DNA of 54,676 bases, the filler included, from Basidiobolus ranarum (taxonomy: Eukaryota), in assembly GCA_040143965.1 (NCBI GenBank). It is 4 parts of 4 records of this genome, joined end to end, with 100 filler letters (N's around TTAATTAATTAA, not from the genome) between each part and the next. Parts side by side here need not be neighbours in the genome. Positions count along the whole stretch, not along the records: positions 1 to 13,616 come from JASJQH010000473.1; 3 more parts are not named here. One strand, written 5' to 3'. A model generated the notes under the pieces. It was not told the origin of the DNA and made no database searches. It worked only from the letters and a program-made list of their open reading frames with translations. Position numbers and translations under genes: made by a program. Positions 2,311-45,879 of the stretch are shown piece after piece. Numbering within the stretch: position 1 is the first letter of the stretch; the number at the start of each line of letters is the position of its first letter.

Positions 2311-3094
2311 TTAACTACGTAATAAATCATAATGAATATCAGACTCGGTATTTCTAGAAATCCACAATGCACCAGAGCTAATATAAGAAATTCCAGTTAA
2401 ACTATTGTTCATAAATACAACATCAAGTTAGCCTTTTGGTTACTTTACCTCAACAAAATGGCTATATTTTGAACTATGGGTGCGATACCAAGGTAAAAAT
2501 AAGAAGAATCCACTCCAGGCGCAATATATTTAATACACAGAATTGCCTTTCAAAGGAGATAATTATATTAGATGTTGAGCTGCGTTTGAAAAGTACAATC
2601 AATAAACCCCACCACTGAACCAGCTATACCACCACCCATGGCAGCCATCCCTATAAAGAGCATCACTCTTGCTTTACCAACGACTCCGGAGCCACCAAAG
2701 GTCATGGAATCATCTTCAAGGAGGCTCTGATCAATGGAACTTACACTTCAAAATATTAGAAATATCCAAAAGTATGGATAACTGCGTAATATAACTTACA
2801 TGATCATACCTAAAGTAGATATAATACCAGAAATATAATCCTCGAAACCAATATATACAGGTAGTTCTTCAAATGTTGTGGACAAAATTATTCCATCAAC
2901 AAACACCCACCAACCTATAGCAAACTGAAAAGTACTAATATAAATAACCTTTAAATATCCCAACCATCAGTTCTTAAAATACAAACCAAGAACCCCGCAA
3001 TATATGAACCAAACTCTTTTTTCATAATACCCAAACCTGAAAACTTTGGAAAGTTGCAAAGGAATGGGCTCCTAGAATTCGACCAAGAATCCAT
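2311..3094 (-). CDS. VPS68: Vps68/TMEM50 (UPF0220) small membrane protein, 5 exons; absent from the ORF track
   Basis: Manual splicing gives MDSWSNSRSPF...GSYIAGFL/FAIGWWVFVDGIILS...FEDYISGIISTLGMII/VSSIDQSLL...KARVMLFIGMAAMGGGIAGSV/AILCIKYIAP...IVQNIAILLS/SGALWISRNTESDIHYDLLRS*, matching the Vps68 motif pattern. Confidence 0.85.
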
Positions 3095-3498
3095 AATATA
3101 TTGCGTTGGAGTAAGTTGTACAAGGAGAAAGTGCGAATTCTAATAAATTATGGATTTCTGCTACCTCTTAAACAACTCTATACGTCATGTTATTATTGAA
3201 CTCGATTTGATAGCCTGAAAGTTGAGCCTGTATGCTGGTGACTCCTTATATTATATATATACCAATCACTAGGAACGTTATAACGACCATACCAGAGATA
3301 AAATTGCGGTGTATGAATACTCTTTTGGTACTCATTAGAAGTTTATTACAAATTTGGCGAAATTGAAGGTTCGAAAAAATAATGTCCATTGTTAATGTCC
3401 ATAGAGAAAAAAAGTCCATAAATAAGATCTATTAAATGATCTCAAGTTTAAAAAAATGTCCTTGGGGATAATTTGGGGGAATAGTTTTAGCGCATGAT

Positions 3499-4721
3499 TT
3501 AGAAGTTGAGCTTCTTGGGTTGTTCCCAGGAGAATTCTTCACGACCAAAATGTCCGTAACAAGCAGTCTTGGAGTAGATGGGCTTGATAAGGTTGAGTTC
3601 CTTGACGATAACTCCGGGACGGAGATCCCAGTTGTTCTTGATGATCTCAAGGAGCTCGGCGTTAGTCTTGGTGCTGGTACCGTAGGTATCAACAAAGATA
3701 GAAAGGGGCTCGGCAACACCAATAGCATAGGAGAGTTGTACCAAACAACGCTTAGCTAAGCTAGCAGCAACCAAAGACTTGGCGATCCAACGAGCAGTGT
3801 AAGCAGCGGAACGATCGACCTTGGACCAATCCTTTCCAGAGAAAGCACCACCACCGTGAGCACCCCAACCACCATAGGTATCAACGATGATCTTACGTCC
3901 GGTAAGACCGGCATCACCTTGAGGTCCACCAATGATGAACTTGCCTGAAGGATTCAAGTGATAGACGGTTCTTTCATCGAGAAGATGGGCAGGAATAACA
4001 GCCTCAACAACCTTTTCCTTCAATTCACGACGAATGGTCTCGTTGTCAACTTCAGGAGCGTGTTGAGTAGAAATAACAACAGTGTCAACTCTAAGAGGAA
4101 TCATGGCACCGTTATCGTTCTTGTATTCAACGGTAACTTGGGTCTTGGAATCAGGACGTAACCATCCGAGAGTACCATCGCGACGAAGTTGGCTCATCTT
4201 GTAGTTAAGCTTGTGGGAGAGGGTGACGGTAAGGGGCATAAGCTCAGGAGTTTCGTCACTGGCATAACCGAACATAATACCTTGATCACCAGCACCGGTA
4301 TCTTCGATGGCATCACTGACTTGGACCAAACCTTGGGCAATATCAGGGGATTGTTGTTCGATGGCAACAAGAACGTTGCAGGTCTTGTAATCGAAACCCT
4401 TCTCGGAATCATCGTAACCAATGTTACGGATGGTTTCACGAATGACCTTTTGGTAGTCAATTTGAGCCTTGGTGGTGATTTCACCAAAGACCATGATCAA
4501 ACCAGTCTTAGCAGCAGTCTCGCAAGCAACCTTAGAGAGAGGATCTTGAGCGAGGCAAGCATCAAGAATAGCATCGGAGACTTGATCGCAGATCTTGTCT
4601 AATGAGGTAATGACATGTCAGTAAGGGTGGTCAACAAACAAATGTATAGGAATATCTACATACCAGGATGACCTTCGCCAACGGATTCAGAGGTGAAAAG
4701 GAAAGTATCAGCAACGGTCAT
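3499..4721 (-). CDS. SAM2: S-adenosylmethionine synthetase (MAT), 2 exons (intron 4599-4663)
   Basis: [77 protein letters not shown]. Strongly biased codon usage typical of a highly expressed gene. Confidence 0.98.
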
Positions 4722-5299
4722 TTTACGAGATTGACTTGAATGGAAAAGTCTGATACGGGTAGGTCCGCGAGTAGCATGTACTTATAAAGATTGATGAAAT
4801 TTTTTTTTCAGGCAAAAAAAAGTCGTAAATACTCACTCTGGAGGAATAGCTTAATTTGGAAAAGACACTTGGATAAATATCCTCGACAAATTGGCGATTT
4901 CTGGTAATGGGAAAATAATGCCATTGGTAACCGCGAATTCTGAAATCTGTACAACGCAAAAGCACCCAATAAAAAATAGACAACATCGCGCTAACCCTGC
5001 TTCATTTGAGATCGACAAAAAGCACATACAGTTGAGGAGATTCTGTTAACCATGCATCAGTAAACGTGTGAAGAATCTGACTTGAATTCTTACGCACAAG
5101 CATCCATGCCAACTATATATTAGCATAGATTTCCATCACTATTTCCATCACTATTTCCACTCACTTGAAAAAATATTGCGCAATTTTCTATGCTATTCTC
5201 AGATGTTCTTCGGGTCAATCTGGATTATTATGGCTATATATAGTGGGTCATGTTTACCTAACCCTAAGCATCGATAACAAATGGGTTAATGGGGCAGCT

Positions 5300-9429: not shown

Positions 9430-11403
9430 ATGTCTTCCGAATTAGTAAACTACAACGGAGAACCTCCTAAGAAGAAGTATCGTCCATCATTAGTCTCTGA
9501 TGCGATTGAATCAGATTACATTGATGAGACTGATTTTGCTCAATATATCGATACATCTAGTTTTGACTTTACTGGGGAATCTGATTCCGCAGATATCCAG
9601 TCTCTAAAAGATGACAACATTGAATTTTCCGAAAAACCTACCAAGAAAGATCTACAAGCACAGAAATCCGCTGAGAATACAGCCACTCCGTTGGAGTCGG
9701 AAACGCTAGAAAATGTAAAGGCCTCTGAAGATCATTCAGATACAGAATTACCAGAACATGACGATGATGTCAGTGATTCTAGAGAAGACAAGAAGGATAC
9801 TGCCTCCTCAAAAAAGCGTACCAGGGCAACTGCTGAGCAACTTTCCATTTTGGAAGAGACTTTCTTGACCAACACATCTCCCAATAGTAAAGTAAGAGAA
9901 GCACTAGCTGAGCGTGTAAAAATGTCTGAGCGTTCCATTCAGATATGGTTCCAGAATCGTAGAGCAAAGGTCAAGTTAATGCAAAAGCGCTCCCATATGC
10001 TACAAGAGGAGGCTTTCAAGCAGCAATACCTTAGTACATGCATGGCCGGATATAATACCAACCTTTATCCATTCCGGATGGGTATGGCACCATATCCTAA
10101 TGGCCGTGTTCCCCTTCCACGTTCAAATACCGAGTTCATCCCTCCAAATATCCCTAGAGCCTCTCCCGTTCCTCATCCTAGTCAACATCTTGGTGTGAAC
10201 ATGTCCGGATACTATCCACCGCAATATCCCGGTCAAATACCCATAGGGTATTCTCCACAGCCATTCATGGCTGGACAAGATCATATTGGTGGTTCTATGC
10301 GTGAGAGACCAACAATGATGGTTCGTAGTATGTCAGCACCTACCACACCCAACGCTGCATCCACTGATGGTTGCTACACATTCTCATGTGATACCTTAGG
10401 TGTCGGCTCATGGAGGCGTATGTCAATAACATCCACCGATCTCATTTGCTTTTTCAATACTGTTGAGAGAAAAATGACCTGGCAAATTATGGATAACAAT
10501 GCCCGTTTCAAACTAGAGTTTCCTTTCACTGCCGTTGTTGGCCTAGAATATCAAACACTGGACGCAGTGTTTAGTCAACTTGCTATCGACATTAGCCAAA
10601 CACCCTCATTTTACATGGAAGTCAAATCTGGAAACGGTCATGTGTGGACACCTTGTCGTGATTTCACCGAAGGAAAACAGGCTTCTCGTTTCTTTAGACA
10701 CGTAATCAAGGGACACTCACAGCCACTGAAAAGCCAATTAGTTATGCTGATGCAAGCTGATCCCAATTTACAACGAGTTACTCAGATTGACGCCCCAGGA
10801 TCAACTCTATCTTCCCAAATGATCCCTGAACGTCCTCAATCGTTCCCAGTTGTTAGCAGCACCGACTCTCATGCTGCGAATATAGAATTCGCTTCTCGTC
10901 GTGCAATTTCAGTTCCTATGCTAAATATGGTAGGCCCAGGTGAAAGGCCCAGAGCAGTTTCAATGGTTTCTGAGATGGGACAGTTTGTCAGTTCAGAAAT
11001 GACTCCAGAGTTACAAGAACAGTTAATTGCCACCCTAAATCAAGGTAGTACCATCGCTATCGGATCCAACATGGCGACCCCTCCATTGGCCGAACATGAC
11101 TTCAATCAACCATCTGCATCCAATTCCCCCATTGAAAACAGCACCCCAACGCCCAGCGAACTGGTGTTGACCTCGCCACTGAGTCTATACCAGAATGCCT
11201 TGGAGCAAAGCCAGTATACCAGTTCCGCTGTTTCTAACCAGAGCACCATTGATCCTATGTTCGGAAACTTGGTACCTCAGATGCCATCTAATGATGGGCT
11301 ACTCAACTACGACCATGAAGTCTATGACCAGATTTTAGTAGGTGGTTACCAGGGTGGGTACCAGGCAGAGCTTCTGAATCAAGAATACAATGGGCAATTC
11401 TAA
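9430..11403 (+). CDS. Homeodomain transcription factor (Phx1/Hoy1/Pah1-like), intronless, 657 aa
   Basis: KKRTRATAEQLSILEETF...ERSIQIWFQNRRAK homeodomain, N-terminal PKKKYR NLS-like motif, and a downstream block (FSCDTLGVGSWRR...FKLEFPF) resembling this fungal family. Confidence 0.92.
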   Translation: MSSELVNYNGEPPKKKYRPSLVSDAIESDYIDETDFAQYIDTSSFDFTGESDSADIQSLKDDNIEFSEKPTKKDLQAQKSAENTATPLESETLENVKASEDHSDTELPEHDDDVSDSREDKKDTASSKKRTRATAEQLSILEETFLTNTSPNSKVREALAERVKMSERSIQIWFQNRRAKVKLMQKRSHMLQEEAFKQQYLSTCMAGYNTNLYPFRMGMAPYPNGRVPLPRSNTEFIPPNIPRASPVPHPSQHLGVNMSGYYPPQYPGQIPIGYSPQPFMAGQDHIGGSMRERPTMMVRSMSAPTTPNAASTDGCYTFSCDTLGVGSWRRMSITSTDLICFFNTVERKMTWQIMDNNARFKLEFPFTAVVGLEYQTLDAVFSQLAIDISQTPSFYMEVKSGNGHVWTPCRDFTEGKQASRFFRHVIKGHSQPLKSQLVMLMQADPNLQRVTQIDAPGSTLSSQMIPERPQSFPVVSSTDSHAANIEFASRRAISVPMLNMVGPGERPRAVSMVSEMGQFVSSEMTPELQEQLIATLNQGSTIAIGSNMATPPLAEHDFNQPSASNSPIENSTPTPSELVLTSPLSLYQNALEQSQYTSSAVSNQSTIDPMFGNLVPQMPSNDGLLNYDHEVYDQILVGGYQGGYQAELLNQEYNGQF

Positions 11404-11528: not shown

Positions 11529-11583
11529 CCCTCACCCTTGTCCCTCACCCTTATCCCTCACCCTCACCCTACTCTTGCCCTTC
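11529..11583 (+). repeat. C-rich CCCTCA/CCCTT degenerate repeat in the 3' region of the homeodomain gene
   Basis: ccctcacccttgtccctcacccttatccctcaccctcaccctactcttgccctt; eight CCC tracts. Confidence 0.7.
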
Positions 11584-13616
11584 AGTTCGATTGAATATAT
11601 TTATGACTTTAACCTTTTTGATTTGTCAATTTCCTCAAAATCGTTGTATATTACTGAGAATAATAAATCCCCTTCATTATCCACAAAACTGTTCAACGTA
11701 GCACCAGAGCCTTAGTCTATTCCATAGCCCCTGTTTAAACCCCCAGAAATTGAAATAAGGCGTCATAAATGGCAGTTAATGACAAGGTGGCCAAGGTTTC
11801 ATACAGTTTGGATCGATATTGATTTAGTGTGCAAATTATGTCTGGGAGGTGTGTGAAATGAATCTATTCCCATCAATTCAATCTTCTCAGAGCTCATTAA
11901 CAAGTGTTAGGGAACATTGGTATATTAAGTGGTACTAGATGTGGTGGTTGAACTCAGAGATGAGGCGGTAAAACCACGAATGCCGAGTAGTTACTCCGTC
12001 AACATAGAAGGTTAAAGTAACAGTGATCATATGAAGGTTATGGTGTATCCATATAGCTACATGGATGCCACATTTCCAGGAGCATGGTCCCTTTTACTCT
12101 CTTAGCTCCTATCGCTCTTGGTGTTTTTTTCACTCCTATTTAACACTCCACTCCACATAGCCACAAAGTCATGGAACATTCATTTATCCCGAGAGAGTGG
12201 GATCTTTCTTACCTTGCTGGATCTCAAATGACCATCACCTGCTATAACTATAAGTAGAAATGTCTTTGGAGTCGAGCTGAGTAACGGGGCATCAGGTTCA
12301 AGTAAGACCGTGGGTTTCTTACTTGAAGTTGGGTCTAGCTTTAATGGAGCGAAAACAATGGACATTCTCTAAAGAGTATGCGAGCACTTGATGCACTCCT
12401 TGTCCTAAACCTCCCTTTTCTACATCTCATCCAATGCTTTCACACAAAGTGTTCATCGGTAATGATTTGATTTTACCAAGAACACTGGAGTGATGGTAGT
12501 GGTAAGTCAGGTCAGACTGGGTAATAATCTTTCCATATCGGTGAAGTGTTTCCTTTGGGTCTTTAAAGTGGTCGAGTAAATCAAGATGTGAGAAATCTCG
12601 TTAGTTTTAATGACATGACGATGGAGGAATACAGAAATCAGATACAAAAATCTCGATTATAATCACTATTGTATTACCTGTTTCACCTTGAACTCTCAAT
12701 CGACGTCATAAAGGGATGTTTTGTGAAACCTAGTACAAATCTATCTACTGTGAGTGGCGGTTGTGCGTGATTTCGATCAAATGAAGGAAGTAAATATAGA
12801 TTAAGGAAGCGTGCAGGTAGGTACGCATCAAAGTCGAGACTTTGTTGAACTTGGTATAGTATAGGCCTAGAATGCAAAGTGGGTTTATTCCGATCATATA
12901 TTCCCCATTTCTCTTCCAATGACGGTAATATTTATTGCTCATAAACTAGCAAGTGGCCTACTTTACTTTAAAGTGCGAAGTAATACACTTCAGGAAAGCT
13001 TTCATTCGTTCATGGTGTACTCGCTGGTTGTTTCGTGGCATCGGGATATCGGATAACATTTTCCCTAAGACTCAAGTATTTCCAGCTATTATCATTGCTA
13101 GGTTACTTCAAACCCACATCGTATTAAATACTATATTGAGCTAATTAACTGGAGTCTCACAATGTTCGCTTAATTCCAAAATGTAGTACGCATATTTATT
13201 TTTCATAAAAGAATCCTCCGTCATTGCACTTGGAATCACCACTTTGAGAGTTTTAGTTTCGTTTGTAACTCTTTGGGAATCGCCATTTCCTTGAATGATC
13301 AGACGTGGTTACGTATGTGTTCTATATATTTATCAATGTTTTGATTCTGTATCCATTTTAGGCCTTCGTTCGGGTTCAATTTTATTATAAACTTTTACGG
13401 TTAGACCGACATTGATATTTCTTTATTTTAGAGTTCAAATGAAGTATATCATTGTGCCACTAATACTTTGCCTATATTGTCTCTCATGTAAGTACCAGTT
13501 GAGAGCAATTCTCTGTTGACTACATTTGCTACATTGTCCTAGCAAGGATATTTCGGCAAACGAAGTTAAAGCCGGTAGATCTGTGGTATATATATACATC
13601 TACCGCCTTTGGTATT

Positions 13617-13716
13617 NNNNNNNNNNNNNNNNNNNNNNNNNNNNNNNNNNNNNNNNNNNNTTAATTAATTAANNNNNNNNNNNNNNNNNNNNNNNNNNNN
13701 NNNNNNNNNNNNNNNN
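13617..13716. other. Artificial contig-joining spacer
   Basis: 44 N + TTAATTAATTAA (stops in all six frames) + 44 N; identical to the two other spacers. Confidence 0.98.
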
Positions 13717-16700
13717 AACTGAGGTAGCACGATCCTTAGAAGCAGCACTAGAGGGTCTAGGTCTAGTAGCAACGGGACGAGTAGGGCCTACATGAGCTGG
13801 CGCACCTTTTGATTCAACTGGTTTCCTAGAACTGGCTACTGAGCTCACTTTGGTAGTAGGTGCAGGCTTTGGTGCAGAAGTTCTACTAGTTGCAGTAGTA
13901 GTAGTAGCAGGCTTGGTGGCGGTTCTTAAGGTAGAAGGAACTCGAGTTCTGGTTCCATCCTTGCTAGCAGCAACTTTGGCTTGTTCTCCGGTGATAGGTG
14001 AACGACCACTGGGAGGCATACTGGATCTCTTAGGTGCGGTGGCGGAAGCGGTAGTGGACCCAGCAGCAGGACGGACGCTTCTCTTTGCAGTAGTAGCATC
14101 GCTCACAGATACAGGACGAGGTTTTGCTTGAGTGGTTGTAGCACGACTGCCATTTGGTGGGGCAGCACGCATAACAGGGCTACGAGTGGGTTTCTTAGCA
14201 CCATTACTTGCACTATCTGCGTTACCAAAGACGATCTTGATTTCGCGTGAAGCGCTGGAAAAAGAATCACTGCCATGTACAGCATTCTTAGATCCATCAG
14301 TACCATACAAAGCACGAATACTTTTTGGAGCAGCTTCTTTAGCCTTTACTGAGTTAGTTGGGCCCATCAAATCTCTCCAAGCTTTAACTGCGCCTTCTTT
14401 TCTAAGAACCATGGCGTAGACAGGAGCACTGCTCATCCAAGTGATAAGCTTTTCGAAGAAAGGCTTTCCATCATGTTCGGCGTAAAACTCCTTAGCCTTG
14501 AGTCTAGTAAGTCTAACTTCTTTTTCTTTAACAATAGTGAACCCTTCTTTCTTAATGATCTTCTGAATGTTGATCTTACGACCAGCACCATAGGCATCGG
14601 GCTTAATAAGGGCCAATGTTTGTTCAATATCACTTTGGGATACGTTTGAAGATGCTGAAGTGCTTGAAGGGCTAAACACAATCTTAATCTCACGGGTAGC
14701 ACTATCAACAGAATCACTTCCATGTACAGCATTATGAGATCCATCTGTACCAAAGAGTGCACGGATACATTGGGGATTTTCCTCCTTAGCCTTAATAGAA
14801 TTGGTTGGGCCAATTAAGTCTCTCCAAGCTTTAATAGCATTATTCTTCTCTAGAATCAAAGCGTAAATAGGTTGGCTAGTCATGAATTCAACCAAACCTT
14901 CGAAGAAAGGTTTGCCTGTATGTTCTTTGTAAAACTCCTCCGCTTGACTCTTGGTAAGGGTGATTTCTTTCTCTTTGATAATGGCAAAGCCATCCTTCTT
15001 GATAATATCAATGATTGCTGCTTTGTTACCGGCACCATATGCGTCAGGCTTAATTAGAGCTAAAGTGCGTTCTAATTGAGCTTGGGTTTCGGTAGTAGCC
15101 TCTTGTTCAGCCGGTTCATCAACGGATCCCGCATGGTCAACACTAATATCTTTCTCAGGTTCGGGGTTAGCTTCTTCAGGTACAGCATCACTTGGATTTT
15201 CTGCAGTTGCCACGGCATCCTCATTCAATACTTCAGCAGTACCTTCGCTTTGTACCTCAGCACTTTCAAGGCCAGGTTGAGATTCTACGTCTTCAGGTAA
15301 TACATCATCACCATTCTTGGGTGGCTCATCATCCGTTACATTCTGGATTTCTGTATCTGCCACTTCCTGTGGTTGGGAATCAGCAACATCCTCTGCTGGC
15401 TGAGAATCTTCTTGATTTGAAGCCTCAACAGCTTCTTCACTAGGAGTAGCAACATCCTTTTCTGCTTGAGAATCTTCTTGATTTGAGGCTTCAACAACGT
15501 CTTCAGGTTGCTGGTTCACTTCGCTTGAAGTCATAACATCCGCTTCAGTATGAGAATCTTCTTTTGAAACAGGAACTTCATATTCAGGCTCATCTTGGGA
15601 TTTGGTTTGGCCAAAAACTATACCAATTTCTCTTTTAGCATTGGCAATCGAGTCACTGCCGTGAACAGCGTTTTTAACACTGTCGGTACCATACAAGGCC
15701 CTGATACTTCCATGAGATTCAAACTTCGCTTTCAGAGAATTAGCAGGACCCATCAAACTGCGCCACTCTTGGACGGCATTTTCTTTTTCTAGTACCATAG
15801 CTAGAGAAGGAGCACTAGTGAGTAGATTCACAATGTTTTCAAAGAAACGTTTTTCTTTGTATTCACTGTAAAATTCTTCAGCCAGAGATTTGCTAAAAGT
15901 GACTTCTTCAGATTTAACAACAACAAACTTTTTCTCTTCAATTAATTGAAGAATATCCTCTTGGCGGCTTGTTCCGTAAACATCTGGCTTAATGAGAACA
16001 AAAGTTTGCTCTTCATTGCTTACTTCAAGTTTATCATCCTCAGTAGCTAATTCCTCTGTCACGTTGGTATTCTCAGTATCAGCCTGTTCATCAGCAACAG
16101 GGATGACTGGTACTTCATTCAAAGCTTCTTCGGGAGTCTTCTCAGGAAGTAATGCGGATTCTTCTGCAGATACATCCTCACGGTGTGGCTCGTGAGTTTC
16201 AGTTTCCTTAAGCTCGGTAATGTCATCGGTAACAACCTCATCATTGTTCTCAATGCTTGGTTCAGGGATTTCTGAATCAGCTGGAGCAACGGAGTCAGAA
16301 TCTACAACTTCATGTACCTCAGCATCTTCATGGGGCTGGCTTGAGGTGTTATCTTCGTTGCTGTTGTCAACTTCCTCCGTGACCTCAGAATCTTCAATAG
16401 CTTTAGAATCTTGGTCTTCAACCACTGGTTCTACGGTATCGGATTCATGTTGAACAGGCTCCTCAGATTCCAATTCTTGAGAAACAACATCCTTTGTACC
16501 ATCGTTTCCTTCTTCAACTTCAAGGTTTGATTCTTGCTCAACATCTGGGGGAGAACTTTCTTCTGAATCCTCGACATGGTTGTCTTGAGGTAAAACATTT
16601 GAATCAACAACGTCAGTGGCTTCGGTTTGTTCTTCGTCATCTTGCTTTTGTAAATCTAATGATTCAACATGGTTCTCACTTTCATTCTCTTCGGTAACTA

Positions 16701-18318
16701 AATCAGCCTCTTCATTAGTTTTCTCTTCGTTGACTGACACAGTTTCTTCATTGGTTTGATCTCCGTTGGTTAGATCAGTTTCTTCAATGGTTTGTTCTCC
16801 GTTGATTAGAGCAGTCTCTTCATTGGATTGTTCTCCATTGGTTAAAGCAGCTTCTTCATTAGACTGTTCACCATTTACTTTAGCATCAACTTGCTCAGTA
16901 CTATCTTCTTGAGAGAGTTCGAGACTCTCTTTTTGGTCCTCCAATACTTCTTCCTGATCATTCTCAGTGGTCGATTGAATGACATCAGATTCAATGGGTG
17001 CTTCGGTGTTATCCACATCAACACCAGCAGTAAGAGATTCGAAGAATTGTGGGAAAAAGAATGTGATTTCTCGGTTAGCAGCTTCCTTGGACTCACTTCC
17101 ATGAATAGCGTTCTTAACCTCATCAGTTCCGTAAAGGGCACAAATACTATATTAACTATAGATTAGTATTGAATAAAGGGTATTATAATAAAAGTGATTT
17201 ACCTTTGTGGCCGGGTGATTCTTGCAACCTCAACATCAGCTGGACCCATCATCTCTCTCCATCCACGAACTGCGTTAATTCCTTTGAGAAGGACGACGTG
17301 AACCTCACCACTACATTAACAAAAATTTGATGAGTATTTACTATTGATCATGATTCAAAAGTATATCCCAGTTACCTAGTCATAAATGAGATGAGATCTT
17401 TATAGAAAGGTTTACTTTTCTGATCTTTGTAAAATTCTTTAACTTGATCTTCAGTTAATTGTAACTTTTCGAAATTCAACACCTCGAATCCTTTATAATT
17501 AATCGCCTTTAATATGGTATCAGAATGACCGGCAGCAACTGCATCTGGTTTAATCATTCCCAAAGTGTACTCGGATTTAAATAAAGTATCGTCTCCGTGC
17601 TCTTTAGAATCACTAACCATAGTATGTATACTATTGGCGAAGACGAACTCAATTTCTCTTTTAGCGGCCTCAACAGAGTCAGAACCATGGACAGCATTCT
17701 TGGTGATATCAACGCCGAACATAGCACGAATACTATATTGAATTGGTTATAAATCATGAGTCAATATGAACACTCAAATAAAAAATGGATATATCACCCA
17801 CCTATTAACATCCGTATCTCTAGCAACTTCAGGATCGGTAGGGCCTAATAATTTTCTCCATATTTGAACTGCATCATCTTGACGAAGTTCAAAAGCCATA
17901 ACAGGAGCACTATTTATGAGAGGTACAGGTTAATATAGAGAAGTAACCAAATTGAAGTGAAAAAAAACCCTCGAAGAGTACCAAGTAATGTAAGAGATTA
18001 ACTCTTCGAAAAAGGGTTTATCCTTATGTTCAAGATAAAACTCTGAAGCAGATTCTCTGGTAAACCAGAATTTCTTTTGGCGTACGAGCTCAAAGCCGGC
18101 CAGTTGTACCAGGTCTTTGATAGCTTGGATGCGGTGAGGTGTGAGACAGTCTGGTTTGATTAAAGCCAAAGTACTCTCAATTTGGTTTTGTTCCTCAAAG
18201 TTCTAATAAAAGACATTAATGAAAGGTGAAAAGAAAGTGAATAAGCTAGAATAGAGTGGGAGTAGTAAATAGCAAGCTTTAGTACCTGAGAATCAACATC
18301 AGTAGGTTCGGGTGCCAT
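13717..18318 (-). CDS. Large multi-domain nucleoside diphosphate kinase-like protein (five group-II-like NDK domains, acidic linkers, basic tail); 3' end truncated by contig end
   Basis: ATG 18318 (MAPEPTDVDSQ) spliced through five introns into the long ORF-track exon. Five IKPD...FY...WR..(L/M/I)GP...NA(V/I)HGS(D/E)S...REI units. Confidence 0.9.
16695..16875 (-). repeat. Intragenic 36-bp (12-aa) tandem repeat in the acidic linker
   Basis: NGEQSNEEAALT NGEQSNEETALI NGEQTIEETDLT NGDQTNEETVSV NEEKTNEEADLV. Confidence 0.8.
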
Positions 18319-25839: not shown

Positions 25840-27325
25840 ATGACGAAAGAAAAGATAAAGAAAAAGGGGGGTGGCAAATCCAAACCTCATAAAGAGCCCG
25901 TTAAAAATGAAAGTGTGGAGAACGTGGTCGATTCTCTTAAAGATAATACCCGATATAATGGGAAAAAGGCTGGCGATCCTATACCAACTGTCGAGGTATT
26001 GCTCTATAGTTTCTAAATCTACTTCATCGCGACGACATTCTAACCTTTCTGATAGGATAAATGGCAACTTTTACCCGCCTTTTTAAAAGTCAAGGGTCTG
26101 GTTAAACAACACATCGATTCATTTAACTATTTTATCAACGTTGATTTAAATAAGATTTTGAAGGCTAACGAGAAAGTAACTTCTGATGTCGATCCCAACT
26201 TTTATCTAAAGTAAGCGCTTTTAAAACATCAATCGATTCGATGTACATCTTGTTTAAACTGTTTCATAAGATATACTGGTATTCGCGTTGGTAAGCCTGA
26301 GCGAACCGATCCTCATGCTGTCAATTTAGAATACACACCTCACGAGTGTCGCCTTAGAGACCTCACTTATTCGACTAACATCTATGTCGACGTTGAATAT
26401 GTTCGCGGTAGGCAACTTGTGCGTCGTCGTGGAGTTCCCATTGGTAGAATGCCTATTATGCTACGTAGTTCTCACTGTGTTCTAAGTGGTAAAGATGAGG
26501 CGGAACTCGCCAAAATGTGCGAATGCCCCTTAGATCCAGGCGGCTACTTCATCGTCAAGGGCACTGAAAAAGTTATTCTTGTTCAAGAACAATTGTCCAA
26601 GAATCGTATTATTGTTGATGTGGATCGTAAAGGAATGGTTGTTGCTTCAGTCACAAGGTATGATGTCCAGTTTATCGAAACAGTGTTTATACGGCTAGAC
26701 TCATAGGTGCCCATTGTTAGTTCCACGCATGAGAGAAAGAGTAAAACCTACGTAACGGTCAAACACGGAAAGCTTTATCTACGCCATAATTCTATCAATG
26801 AGGACCTGCCTGTTGTTATTGCCATGAAGGTTAGTTAATATGTAATGTTATTTCCATCATTTATAGATTGATATTTTAATATATGAATTACATAGGCTAT
26901 GGGCTTACAAGCCGACAAAGAAATTGCGCAGTTAGTTGGTGGCAGTGATCCTTCATTCCTCGATGCTTTCGCTCCTAGTTTGGAAGAATGTGCGAGATTC
27001 AAGATCTTCACCCAACAACAGGCCCTGGATTATATTGGGAGTAAAGTTAAAGTCACTAGAAAGATTGCAAGCATCAGAAGGCCCATGGTATGTATCAATT
27101 CCAGTGGCTTATTGATAATATGCTAAAAACTCGTAAATTATAGTCTGAGGAAGCTCTTGAAATTTTATCTTCAGTAATTTTGGCACATGTTTTGGTAGAT
27201 GGCCTCAACTTCCGCCCTAAATGTATTTATCTTGCTGCTATGATTCGCCGTGCCATCATGGCGATGAATAATGAAAGACTTATCGACGATCGTGATTATG
27301 TTGGTAATAAGAGACTAGAATTGGC
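25840..27325 (+). CDS. RPC2: RNA polymerase III second-largest subunit, 5' part (truncated at contig end)
   Basis: [97 protein letters not shown]. These motifs are Pol III (RET1)-type. Confidence 0.95.
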
Positions 27326-27425
27326 NNNNNNNNNNNNNNNNNNNNNNNNNNNNNNNNNNNNNNNNNNNNTTAATTAATTAANNNNNNNNNNNNNNNNNNN
27401 NNNNNNNNNNNNNNNNNNNNNNNNN
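27326..27425. other. Artificial contig-joining spacer
   Basis: N-run/TTAATTAATTAA/N-run, 100 nt. Confidence 0.98.
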
Positions 27426-27788: not shown

Positions 27789-28051
27789 ACAAAGTACTAC
27801 CACTTGGATACCCACAACCCGTAGAATAAATAGATTTCTTTTGATCACTATATAAGATGGCTGACTAGGATTTTACTGTTCTTACATATATATTCGAAAT
27901 AGTGAATTAAGAATGTAGAATTACAATAATTGAAGTCGATATTCACCACTTTACTCCATACAAAACTAACGGAAATAATTGATCTCAATATCGATGATTT
28001 ATTATATATTTTTATAACGATCATAATGCAAATCTACTCGAAATGAATTAT

Positions 28052-28118
28052 AGTTAGCAATGTATGATATGAAGTTTTATAGTCAGCAATGTATGATATG
28101 AGGTTTTATAGTTAGCAG
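28052..28118. repeat. 29-bp tandem repeat (about 2.3 copies) downstream of chitinase
   Basis: agttagcaatgtatgatatgaagttttat / agtcagcaatgtatgatatgaggttttat / agttagca. Confidence 0.8.
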
Positions 28119-36514: not shown

Positions 36515-36646
36515 TACTGCATTCATAGTTGCTTTCATATTTCTCTATTCTACTGCATTCATAGTTGCTTTCATATTTCTCTATTCTACTGCTTTCATAT
36601 TTCCTTATTCTACTGCTTTCATATTTCCTTATTCTACTGCTTTCAT
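36515..36646. repeat. Composite minisatellite (2 x 36 bp, 2 x 24 bp, plus a partial unit)
   Basis: tactgcattcatagttgctttcatatttctctattc x2, then tactgctttcatatttccttattc x2, then tactgctttcat. Confidence 0.9.
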
Positions 36647-41015: not shown

Positions 41016-41115
41016 NNNNNNNNNNNNNNNNNNNNNNNNNNNNNNNNNNNNNNNNNNNNTTAATTAATTAANNNNNNNNNNNNNNNNNNNNNNNNNNNNN
41101 NNNNNNNNNNNNNNN
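41016..41115. other. Artificial contig-joining spacer
   Basis: N-run/TTAATTAATTAA/N-run, 100 nt. Confidence 0.98.
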
Positions 41116-44439: not shown

Positions 44440-45879
44440 TTAACTTAAATTTTTCATTTCTACGTCAGATTCATTGCCTTCCGGTAGCATGGTGTACGGA
44501 TATTCTTGTTGAAGAAAGCGCTTAAATGTATGTTGATACATTAGAAGTTTGACTTCGGCCAAGGCTTGATCCAGCATATCAAGTGCATATTCATCGTCTC
44601 GAATTCTTCTTTCAATTTCAGATACAATTTCTCCCTTAAGGTTTACTTGGTAATCAGAATCCATTTGAATGAACGTCTCATAGATTGATTTCAGCTCTAC
44701 TCTGATTTCTACTGGCAAACGATCTTCCTTTGTCGGGTCATGGCTCTTGACAAAGGCAGTTGGTGTAGTGCGTAGTCTAAGATAACGTTCATAGAATAGC
44801 GCATTTTCAATACTAAAGTCCTTCACGGTAAAGGCTTTAAACTTTTCGAAAAGAATCGGATGTTCAAGGACTTCCTCGAAACTAGGCAATTTTCGTCCGT
44901 TGAGATAGTTTTTGGCTCTTTTGTTAGTTTGGTAAATCTCAATCAATGGCAGGCCACAGTTCAGTAAATGTATGGACCACAATGTGCAGAAACCCCAAGT
45001 GCCTACTGGAATGACCGCACGAACATCATACAATACGGGGGTATAACTGAACAACAAGTGAAATAAAAATCCAGTTCCTGTTGCCAATACAATGAGTGAA
45101 AGCTCTTTGACAATGTTATAAGCGTCTGATACTCCTCGAATATATCGGATTACAATACTGCCGAACAAAAAGATCTCACAAGAGCCTATGACATAAACCG
45201 GAATGTATTCCCAACCGTTGAAACAGTCCAACCGTGGGTGTGCGGTGAAGGCATAGCTTTGAGTAAAAGCTTGTACTGTTATCGTCAATGCGATGTGGAA
45301 GAGGGTAAGGCCACCAAGAATACGAATTAGAAATCGATCTTCAAAGATATACGAATGGCGCTGAATCCAGTTACTTTCAAGGTCGTAATCTTGCGAAAGT
45401 TTTAGGTTTGTCGAAGAATCGATAGTTAAAAGCACGATAGACGGGTCACTTGATTGGTCTTTATTGGAGTTGATGGAGTTTGTCTTGCTTTTCTCCCTAA
45501 GTCCTTCCTGGCGACGCCTTTCAGCCTTCAGCTTAGCCAATGATGATCTGTAGAGATATGCGACACGAAGGAATTTCCCGACAGTGGTCAGCATAGTCAC
45601 TGGTGTCAACAGTGAACCAAACCACAAAGTTACAAAGCATGGTAGAAAGCTGGCAAATACAGGGCCCATCAAATATACTGTAGACAGCACAACATTTGCT
45701 GCTACTCCGATCATTGTAATTAGGAGACTACGTGATCGAATACCTGGGTGTTCTCTATATTTCCAGAAAAAAGTCGTAGTAATGAGGACTGATGACACAT
45801 ATAGTACGTATACCACGAATATTGATGCTTTCTGCCCATCAGAGACAGGAAAATCTTCAGCAGCCATTCTGTGTACCAT
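44440..45879 (-). CDS. Seven-transmembrane protein with C-terminal RGS domain (GprK-like), intronless
   Basis: Hydrophobic helices (IRSRSLLIT, FLPCFVTLW, DAYNIVKEL) followed by RGS motifs SFEEVLEHP..FEKFKAFTVKDFSIENALFY, IYETFI..S.YQVNL, LMYQHTFKRF. Start is 45879 or 45867. Confidence 0.88.
   Translation of the reverse strand: MVHRMAAEDFPVSDGQKASIFVVYVLYVSSVLITTTFFWKYREHPGIRSRSLLITMIGVAANVVLSTVYLMGPVFASFLPCFVTLWFGSLLTPVTMLTTVGKFLRVAYLYRSSLAKLKAERRRQEGLREKSKTNSINSNKDQSSDPSIVLLTIDSSTNLKLSQDYDLESNWIQRHSYIFEDRFLIRILGGLTLFHIALTITVQAFTQSYAFTAHPRLDCFNGWEYIPVYVIGSCEIFLFGSIVIRYIRGVSDAYNIVKELSLIVLATGTGFLFHLLFSYTPVLYDVRAVIPVGTWGFCTLWSIHLLNCGLPLIEIYQTNKRAKNYLNGRKLPSFEEVLEHPILFEKFKAFTVKDFSIENALFYERYLRLRTTPTAFVKSHDPTKEDRLPVEIRVELKSIYETFIQMDSDYQVNLKGEIVSEIERRIRDDEYALDMLDQALAEVKLLMYQHTFKRFLQQEYPYTMLPEGNESDVEMKNLS

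Follow-up and report, generated by a model that had tools for sequence, protein, structure and literature searches.

Does the mRNA of a SAM synthetase gene of the fungus Basidiobolus ranarum carry, in its 3' UTR, a group of sites at which the transcript may itself be methylated? The question is raised by four copies of a short GGAC-containing word that follow one another closely behind the stop codon of this gene. The initial annotation had reported these motifs, the stop codon and a downstream AAUAAA, and direct reading of the sequence confirmed all of its coordinates and words for them. We analysed the motifs within the whole stretch of DNA in which they lie (54,676 nucleotides, filler included; hereafter, the window). 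The observation is solid and turned out to be sharper than first described, and its interpretation in terms of m6A is a good, testable hypothesis that has serious rivals.

To our knowledge, m6A feedback on SAM synthetase is known only with METTL16, which acts at hairpins in vertebrates and at a splice site in nematodes. A literature search, in which titles and the beginnings of abstracts were inspected, gave no paper on a cluster of Ime4/METTL3-type sites in a fungal SAM synthetase mRNA.

The SAM synthetase gene and its tandem neighbour

The SAM synthetase gene lies on the minus strand and is made of two exons. Exon 1 (4664-4721, start codon 4721-4719) and exon 2 (3499-4598, which contains the stop TAA at 3501-3499) are separated by the sole intron (4599-4663, GTATGT ... 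TTAG), whose excision gives an open reading frame of 1158 nt. The translation of 3502-4596 (minus strand) is 100% identical to the NCBI entry methionine adenosyltransferase sam2 of Basidiobolus ranarum, and the protein carries the Pfam domains PF00438, PF02772 and PF02773. In a protein homologue search, other members of the family were found at 96%, 94% and 92% identity in B. meristosporus and B. ranarum. The family appears expanded in Basidiobolus, with at least five distinct proteins in B. meristosporus and at least three in B. ranarum; since several paralogues exist, any control exerted through the 3' UTR may be paralogue-specific.

Upstream of the gene, a TATA-like sequence, TTTATAAG, is found at 4788-4781 (minus strand). 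Farther upstream, about 410-440 nt from the start codon, a 12-nt tandem repeat in approximately three copies occupies positions 5129-5159 (minus strand); its core reads ATGGAAAT, and it may be a promoter element.

The stretch behind the SAM synthetase gene had been taken as empty by the initial annotation. This proved wrong: a tandem gene of the UPF0220/TMEM50/Vps68 type, with at least three exons, is located at 2571-3094 on the same strand. Two of its exons, 2966-2799 and 2747-2571, match Pfam PF05255 (E values of 1.1e-08 and 6.8e-09, respectively), and in the reading frame they are preceded by a first exon with the start codon at 3094. The distance from the SAM synthetase stop codon to this start codon is 405 nt, a gap into which the 3' UTR and terminator of one gene and the promoter and 5' UTR of the next must fit. 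Between the two genes, reading of the sequence reveals a TATA-like run, UAUAUAUAUAAUAUAAGG (3245-3262, minus strand), which may serve the downstream gene as its promoter or be an efficiency element of the yeast type. A six-codon upstream ORF, with its AUG at about 3189, lies between this run and the UPF0220 start codon.

Four copies of a 9-mer follow the stop codon

Four 9-mers of the form A[A/U]GGAC[A/U]UU, all on the mRNA strand (minus), are found 38-120 nt past the SAM synthetase stop codon and upstream of the first AAUAAA. They are AAGGACAUU at 3455-3463, AUGGACUUU at 3411-3419 and AUGGACAUU, which occurs twice, at 3394-3402 and at 3381-3389; the adenosines that would be candidates for methylation are A3459, A3415, A3398 and A3385, respectively. 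In all four, GGAC is followed by A or U, as in the RGAC/DRACH core, and three of the four have the exact 7-mer GGACAUU in common. The spacings from copy to copy are irregular (44, 17 and 13 nt).

The four copies were aligned by anchoring them on GGAC and including 12 nt to either side. Within the 9-mer, 7 of the 9 columns are invariant (3 of 5 when the GGAC anchor is left out), as compared to a single one of the 24 flanking columns in the same alignment. The conserved unit is a sharply bounded 9-mer and not a longer duplicated block. The tail behind the stop codon (179 nt) contains 20 G residues, 8 of which are inside the four GGAC cores.

Two other short words were noted in the tail, each present once: UAUUUAU, the core of AU-rich elements, at 3424-3418 (minus strand), directly before the second copy, and UUAAAC at 3451-3446 (minus strand), shortly after the first copy, which we take to be the hexamer bound by S. 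pombe Mmi1. We also considered whether the AUGGAC words might begin small ORFs (of 31 and 60 codons), an idea that was dropped as it had no support of any kind.

The extended consensus and the setting of the cluster

The extended m6A consensus of yeast is given as ANRG-m6A-CNNU (PMC6667471) and, equivalently, as RGAC extended by AN upstream and NNU downstream (PMC9731578). A 2026 preprint describes a preference for U at position +4 in yeast, mouse and human cells and also infers a preference for an adenosine four nucleotides away (10.64898/2026.10.16.759739). When the Basidiobolus copies are compared with this consensus, all 6 fixed positions are satisfied in each of the four (A at -4, R at -2, G at -1, C at +1 and U at +4 around the target A), and the copies differ from one another only at -3 and +2, both of which the consensus leaves free (N). 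The motifs, which had initially been read as DRACH, therefore exceed DRACH, as all four match the nine-nucleotide extended consensus of the METTL3/Ime4 family.

A fifth match to the consensus, ACGGACAUU, is present at 3549-3557 (minus strand) in the coding sequence, 50-58 nt before the stop codon, where it encodes the Gly-His of YGHFG. The two codons that compose it are the rarer ones in this gene (GGA in 6 of 30 Gly, CAT in 2 of 6 His), and this codon choice is a weak hint only.

Writers of the METTL3/Ime4 type usually act in unstructured 3' UTRs, near the stop codon of a long last exon; in any transcriptome, on the other hand, most consensus motifs stay unmethylated. The setting of the cluster agrees with the usual location, since the predicted 3' UTR is unfolded and follows a long last exon. 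The minimum free energy of the tail (3498-3320) is -16.1 kcal/mol, with a z-score of +1.46, and 187 of 200 shuffled sequences fold at least as well; by this folding model, the tail RNA is unstructured. With a predicted unpaired probability of 0.32-0.58, the 9-mers are unremarkable and no more accessible than the tail on average (mean 0.57).

The first canonical poly(A) hexamer after the stop codon is the AAUAAA at 3342-3347 (minus strand), 152 nt downstream, which is presumably used as the signal. A poly(A) site upstream of the motifs had been named as an observation that would speak against their being part of a 3' UTR element; no canonical hexamer, either AAUAAA or AUUAAA, precedes the cluster. 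Given that there is no earlier hexamer, and that AATAAA or ATTAAA occurs within 200 nt of the stop codon in 10 of 14 putative 3' regions of the window, the poly(A) site probably lies beyond the cluster.

Scans for known elements were run on the same sequences. An element of the METTL16 type was rejected, because no UACAG is present on the mRNA strand across the pre-mRNA (4790-3300) and there is no stem-loop structure. The METTL16-type core UACAGA was seen once, at 4951-4946 (minus strand), some 230 nt ahead of the start codon; since it also precedes the TATA-like TTTATAAG, it is probably not part of the mRNA. A SAM riboswitch or another curated RNA family was rejected as well, Rfam giving no match at the gathering score over the whole window, and a tRNA scan of the window found none. 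A tandem repeat or microsatellite was discarded, since Tandem Repeats Finder returned no rows at a minimum score of 30 and the spacings are irregular, and so was a remnant of a mobile repeat or transposon, the region having no second copy in the window.

The cluster is far beyond chance

The word GGACWTT shows no global excess: 13 occurrences were counted in the window on both strands, against 16.8 expected from shuffles. Four of these 13 fall inside the 83-nt cluster, on one strand. The 9-mer A[AT]GGAC[AT]TT occurs six times in the window, four of them in the cluster; the remaining two are at 12358 and at 44823, the latter within the reading frame of an RGS-domain protein. Elsewhere in the window, same-strand clusters of GGACW reach at most two, and a cluster of four bare GGAC recurs once, on the plus strand near 14055.

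As a test motif we used ANRGACNNT, which comes from the literature and is independent of this sequence. It occurs 42 times in the window (22 on the plus and 20 on the minus strand). A cluster of four within 83 nt was obtained in none of 300 first-order Markov simulations of the window, 8 of which got to three. The Poisson expectation for such a cluster is 0.048 for bare GGAC, 1.5e-4 for ANRGACNNT and 4.8e-7 for GGACWTT. When the 179-nt tail itself was shuffled (200,000 mononucleotide shuffles), four or more ANRGACNNT were never seen and four or more GGAC were seen once.

The other 3' regions of the window were used for comparison. Their 13 gene ends were set by the ends of ORFs together with Pfam matches, and one of them (13669) adjoins a run of N. 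Among the 14 putative 3' regions of 200 nt, GGAC is present four times in that of the SAM synthetase gene, once in each of three and never in ten, which bears out the initial statement that no comparable cluster exists in the other 3' regions. The count of ANRGACNNT is four for SAM synthetase, one in one region and zero in twelve. The four-site cluster is far beyond chance, and we consider it probable that the 9-mer is a selected functional word.

A few features seen elsewhere in the window may be mentioned. The 3' region of a GH18 chitinase gene (28048-28112, minus strand) contains a direct tandem duplication of about 31 nt (…CTAACTATAAAACCTCATATCATACATTG…), and a repeat of the CCCTCACCCTT type is found at 11532-11564 (plus strand), behind a homeodomain gene that ends at 11403. 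A reading frame of 1160 amino acids with four nucleoside diphosphate kinase (NDK) domains spans 13669-18202 (minus strand); two further exons that match NDK lie upstream of it, and such a multi-NDK protein is unusually large for a fungus. Six runs of 44 N, in three pairs, were found at 13617-13660 and 13673-13716, 27326-27369 and 27382-27425, and 41016-41059 and 41072-41115; one pair adjoins the assumed stop codon of the NDK gene, whose 3' region is therefore uncertain. An isolated frame of 163 amino acids at 26215-26703 (plus strand) matches only the N-terminal domain of Rpb2, and no further Rpb2 exons were found among the frames of at least 90 amino acids in the window; the frame may be a fragment or part of a gene with many small exons.

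The m6A machinery and comparison with relatives

The initial annotation had held that the lack of an m6A writer in the genome would argue against its reading. At the level of the genus, a writer is on record: Table S1 of PMC10826363 gives IME4-clade (A0A1Y1Y383) and KAR4-clade (A0A1Y1YAV1) proteins, together with WTAP (A0A1Y1YFE9), for the congener B. meristosporus. The 873-row sheet of YTH proteins in the same source, which is filtered by name and to a length of 300-1000 amino acids, has no Basidiobolus row and, because of the length filter, does not prove absence. According to the same work, early-diverging fungi have up to five candidate writer genes and few YTH readers, and these taxa are understudied (PMC10826363).

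Relatives of the SAM synthetase were looked for in metagenomes, where 80 loci out of 589 relatives were considered; the closest of these are 71-77% identical and none is from Basidiobolus. The 3' flanks of six loci at 70-77% identity, among the ten loci viewed, have 0, 3, 0, 0, 2 and 3 GGAC per 250 nt at a G+C content of 50-60%, counts that come from what are presumably GC-rich eukaryotes and speak neither for nor against conservation.

A precedent among the SAM synthetase genes of budding yeast was also sought in published data. In the tables of PMC6667471 that we searched, the m6A-seq windows of SAM2 are below the threshold for m6A dependence (fold changes of 1.47 and 1.33 vs. 1.75), and in the RNA-seq table SAM1 (0.74) and SAM2 (0.53) are under the log2 cut-off of 0.8. 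The searched part of the supplements of PMC9731578 offered nothing in support of such a precedent.

Alternative explanations of the cluster

We regard as the best explanation that the four 9-mers are acceptor sites for an Ime4/METTL3-type complex (Ime4-Kar4-WTAP/Mum2) within the 3' UTR of the SAM synthetase transcript, and we would give this reading a probability of roughly one in three. A role at the level of RNA is favoured because all copies are on the mRNA strand and most likely within the 3' UTR, in an mRNA that is probably abundant (the abundance is our assumption). The competing explanations are weighed below.

The one that survives best, although we hold it to be rather unlikely, is that the copies are neutral local repeats, generated by small duplications or slippage in an A/U-rich tail, and that they resemble the m6A consensus by chance. 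Short repeats of this kind are not rare here: nine loci of the window, this cluster among them, have a complex 7-mer at least three times within 85 nt. By our reading, non-coding DNA accounts for four of the remaining eight (5129-5159, 11532-11564, 28048-28112 and 36530-36646), two of these being located in the 3' regions of other genes. Within the cluster itself, copy 4 begins 13 nt after copy 3 and the two have 11 of 13 letters in common, so that a small duplication is possible, and repeat detection groups three of the copies as 17-nt units at 76% identity. Against this explanation, Tandem Repeats Finder remained blank at its minimum score of 30, the spacers are unrelated, invariant columns number 1 of 24 in the flanks as compared to 7 of 9 in the core, and the region is unique within the window. 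Unrelated flanks and irregular spacing make a recent duplication unlikely; an old one, in which the core was kept and the flanks were lost, would need selection on the core.

The 9-mers might instead be sites for another sequence-specific RNA-binding protein, or seed sites for a small RNA, that affect stability, translation or localisation of the mRNA without methylation. This explanation accounts equally well for the statistics, for the strand bias and for the sharp edges of the 9-mer; the tail has other short RNA signals (UAUUUAU and UUAAAC), and the exact GGACAUU of three of the four copies is like a set of repeated seed matches. We know of no fungal RNA-binding protein whose motif reads AWGGACWUU. 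Moreover, the agreement at six of six fixed positions, with variation confined to N positions, would have to be a coincidence. Acceptor sites for m6A are favoured over another RNA-binding factor because the fit to the writer consensus is complete, and we judge the latter to be unlikely.

Improbable, in our view, is a DNA-level element, in which AAWGTCCWT on the plus strand would represent transcription-factor sites, either for the upstream region of the UPF0220 gene or for the SAM synthetase gene itself. Such a promoter reading becomes possible because the tandem gene starts only 405 nt past the stop codon, and the cluster precedes that start codon by 290-370 nt and the TATA-like run by about 120-200 nt; furthermore, the same-strand tandem repeat upstream of the SAM synthetase gene (5129-5159) has a core, ATGGAAAT, that is a single letter off the 3' UTR core ATGGACAT. 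However, all four copies have the same orientation, which would happen in one case out of eight if orientation were free, and the motif was not found in the other upstream regions of the window, its other two matches being those at 12358 and 44823. A DNA-level role also leaves the fit to an RNA consensus without explanation, and we are aware of no fungal transcription factor with a motif of the AAWGTCCWT type. What probability remains falls to something else altogether.

Proposed function and comparison with known systems

If the 9-mers are m6A acceptor sites, the Ime4-Kar4-WTAP complex would methylate A3459, A3415, A3398 and A3385 during transcription, and possibly also A3553 in the coding sequence. 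An m6A-binding protein would then shorten the life of the SAM synthetase mRNA, as at the 3' UTR site of yeast RME1, and the number of methylated sites would set the strength of the effect. Alternatively, the marks may aid 3' end formation just upstream of the tandem gene; with the two genes so close, faulty 3' end formation would run directly into the UPF0220 gene. We infer for this reading that the cluster is inside the mature mRNA, that its adenosines are methylated and that the mark has an effect. A shortened mRNA life is proposed as the outcome because of the precedents of yeast RME1 and of Pho92, which couples translation to decay (PMC9731578).

The position of the cluster hints that the gene for the cell's methyl donor is under methylation control. 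By analogy with the known loops, a SAM feedback can be imagined, in which plentiful SAM would allow Ime4-Kar4 to methylate up to four or five sites, so that the mRNA would be degraded or mis-processed, whereas at low SAM the mRNA would accumulate. The idea of SAM sensing is attractive because the product of SAM synthetase is the co-substrate of the writer. METTL3-METTL14, on the other hand, binds SAM much more tightly than METTL16 does and should therefore be a poorer sensor. We consider SAM sensing very doubtful, the whole of its support being the identity of the gene.

The closest systems in which the SAM synthetase transcript itself is methylated are found in animals. In the 3' UTR of MAT2A, the hairpins hp1-hp6 are methylated by METTL16 and the mRNA is destabilised when SAM is abundant; the strength of the response is believed to depend on how many sites there are, and the hairpins are restricted to vertebrates (PMC9778287). 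The Basidiobolus cluster is similar in layout only, a SAM synthetase mRNA again having repeated candidate methylation motifs in its predicted 3' UTR. Whereas the MAT2A motif, UACAGAGAA, is presented in a stem-loop to METTL16, the Basidiobolus motif is of the METTL3/Ime4 family, has no UACAG and is not part of a stable structure. In C. elegans, METT-10 deposits m6A at the 3' splice site of sams-3/4/5 (PMC8208822, PMC9778287). If a feedback holds in Basidiobolus, the two systems would have in common that m6A on a SAM synthetase transcript serves as negative feedback from methyl-donor supply. They differ in that the sams mark is a single site on the intron AG, within a nonamer of the METTL16 type, and acts on splicing, whereas the Basidiobolus intron ends in UUAG|AC without such a motif.

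Among fungi, the nearest comparison is S. cerevisiae RME1, in which a site for Ime4 lies in the 3' UTR, 129 nt past the stop codon, and methylation lowers the mRNA level (PMC6667471). Both cases are fungal and have in common the ANRG-A-CNNU consensus, the GGACA core and the 3' UTR position. Unlike the four Basidiobolus copies, RME1 has one site, its methylation is restricted to meiosis, and its mRNA encodes a transcription factor without a metabolic link. In Toxoplasma and plants, m6A-assisted polyadenylation through a YTH-bearing CPSF30 guards tandem genes from read-through (PMC8313237). The arrangement described here is similar, with the motif upstream of the predicted poly(A) signal and a tandem gene 405 nt past the stop codon; a YTH-CPSF30 of Basidiobolus is hypothetical. 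Finally, a structure in the 5' UTR of S. pombe sam1 is said to bind SAM, as bacterial SAM riboswitches do (PMC9778287). These too are cis-acting RNA elements on a SAM synthetase transcript, as the Basidiobolus cluster would be, and sam1 is also fungal. They are, however, structured, ligand-binding and 5', whereas the Basidiobolus element is unstructured, 3' and without an Rfam match.

Should the 9-mers be the sites of another factor or neutral repeats, they would be of local interest only. If the m6A reading with its feedback is true, this would suggest that the link between methyl-donor supply and mRNA methylation arose more than once, and the cluster would be a convergent counterpart of the METTL16-MAT2A loop, with another writer, another motif and no RNA structure. 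Work on mRNA m6A in early-diverging fungi would also gain a first concrete target that can be mutated.
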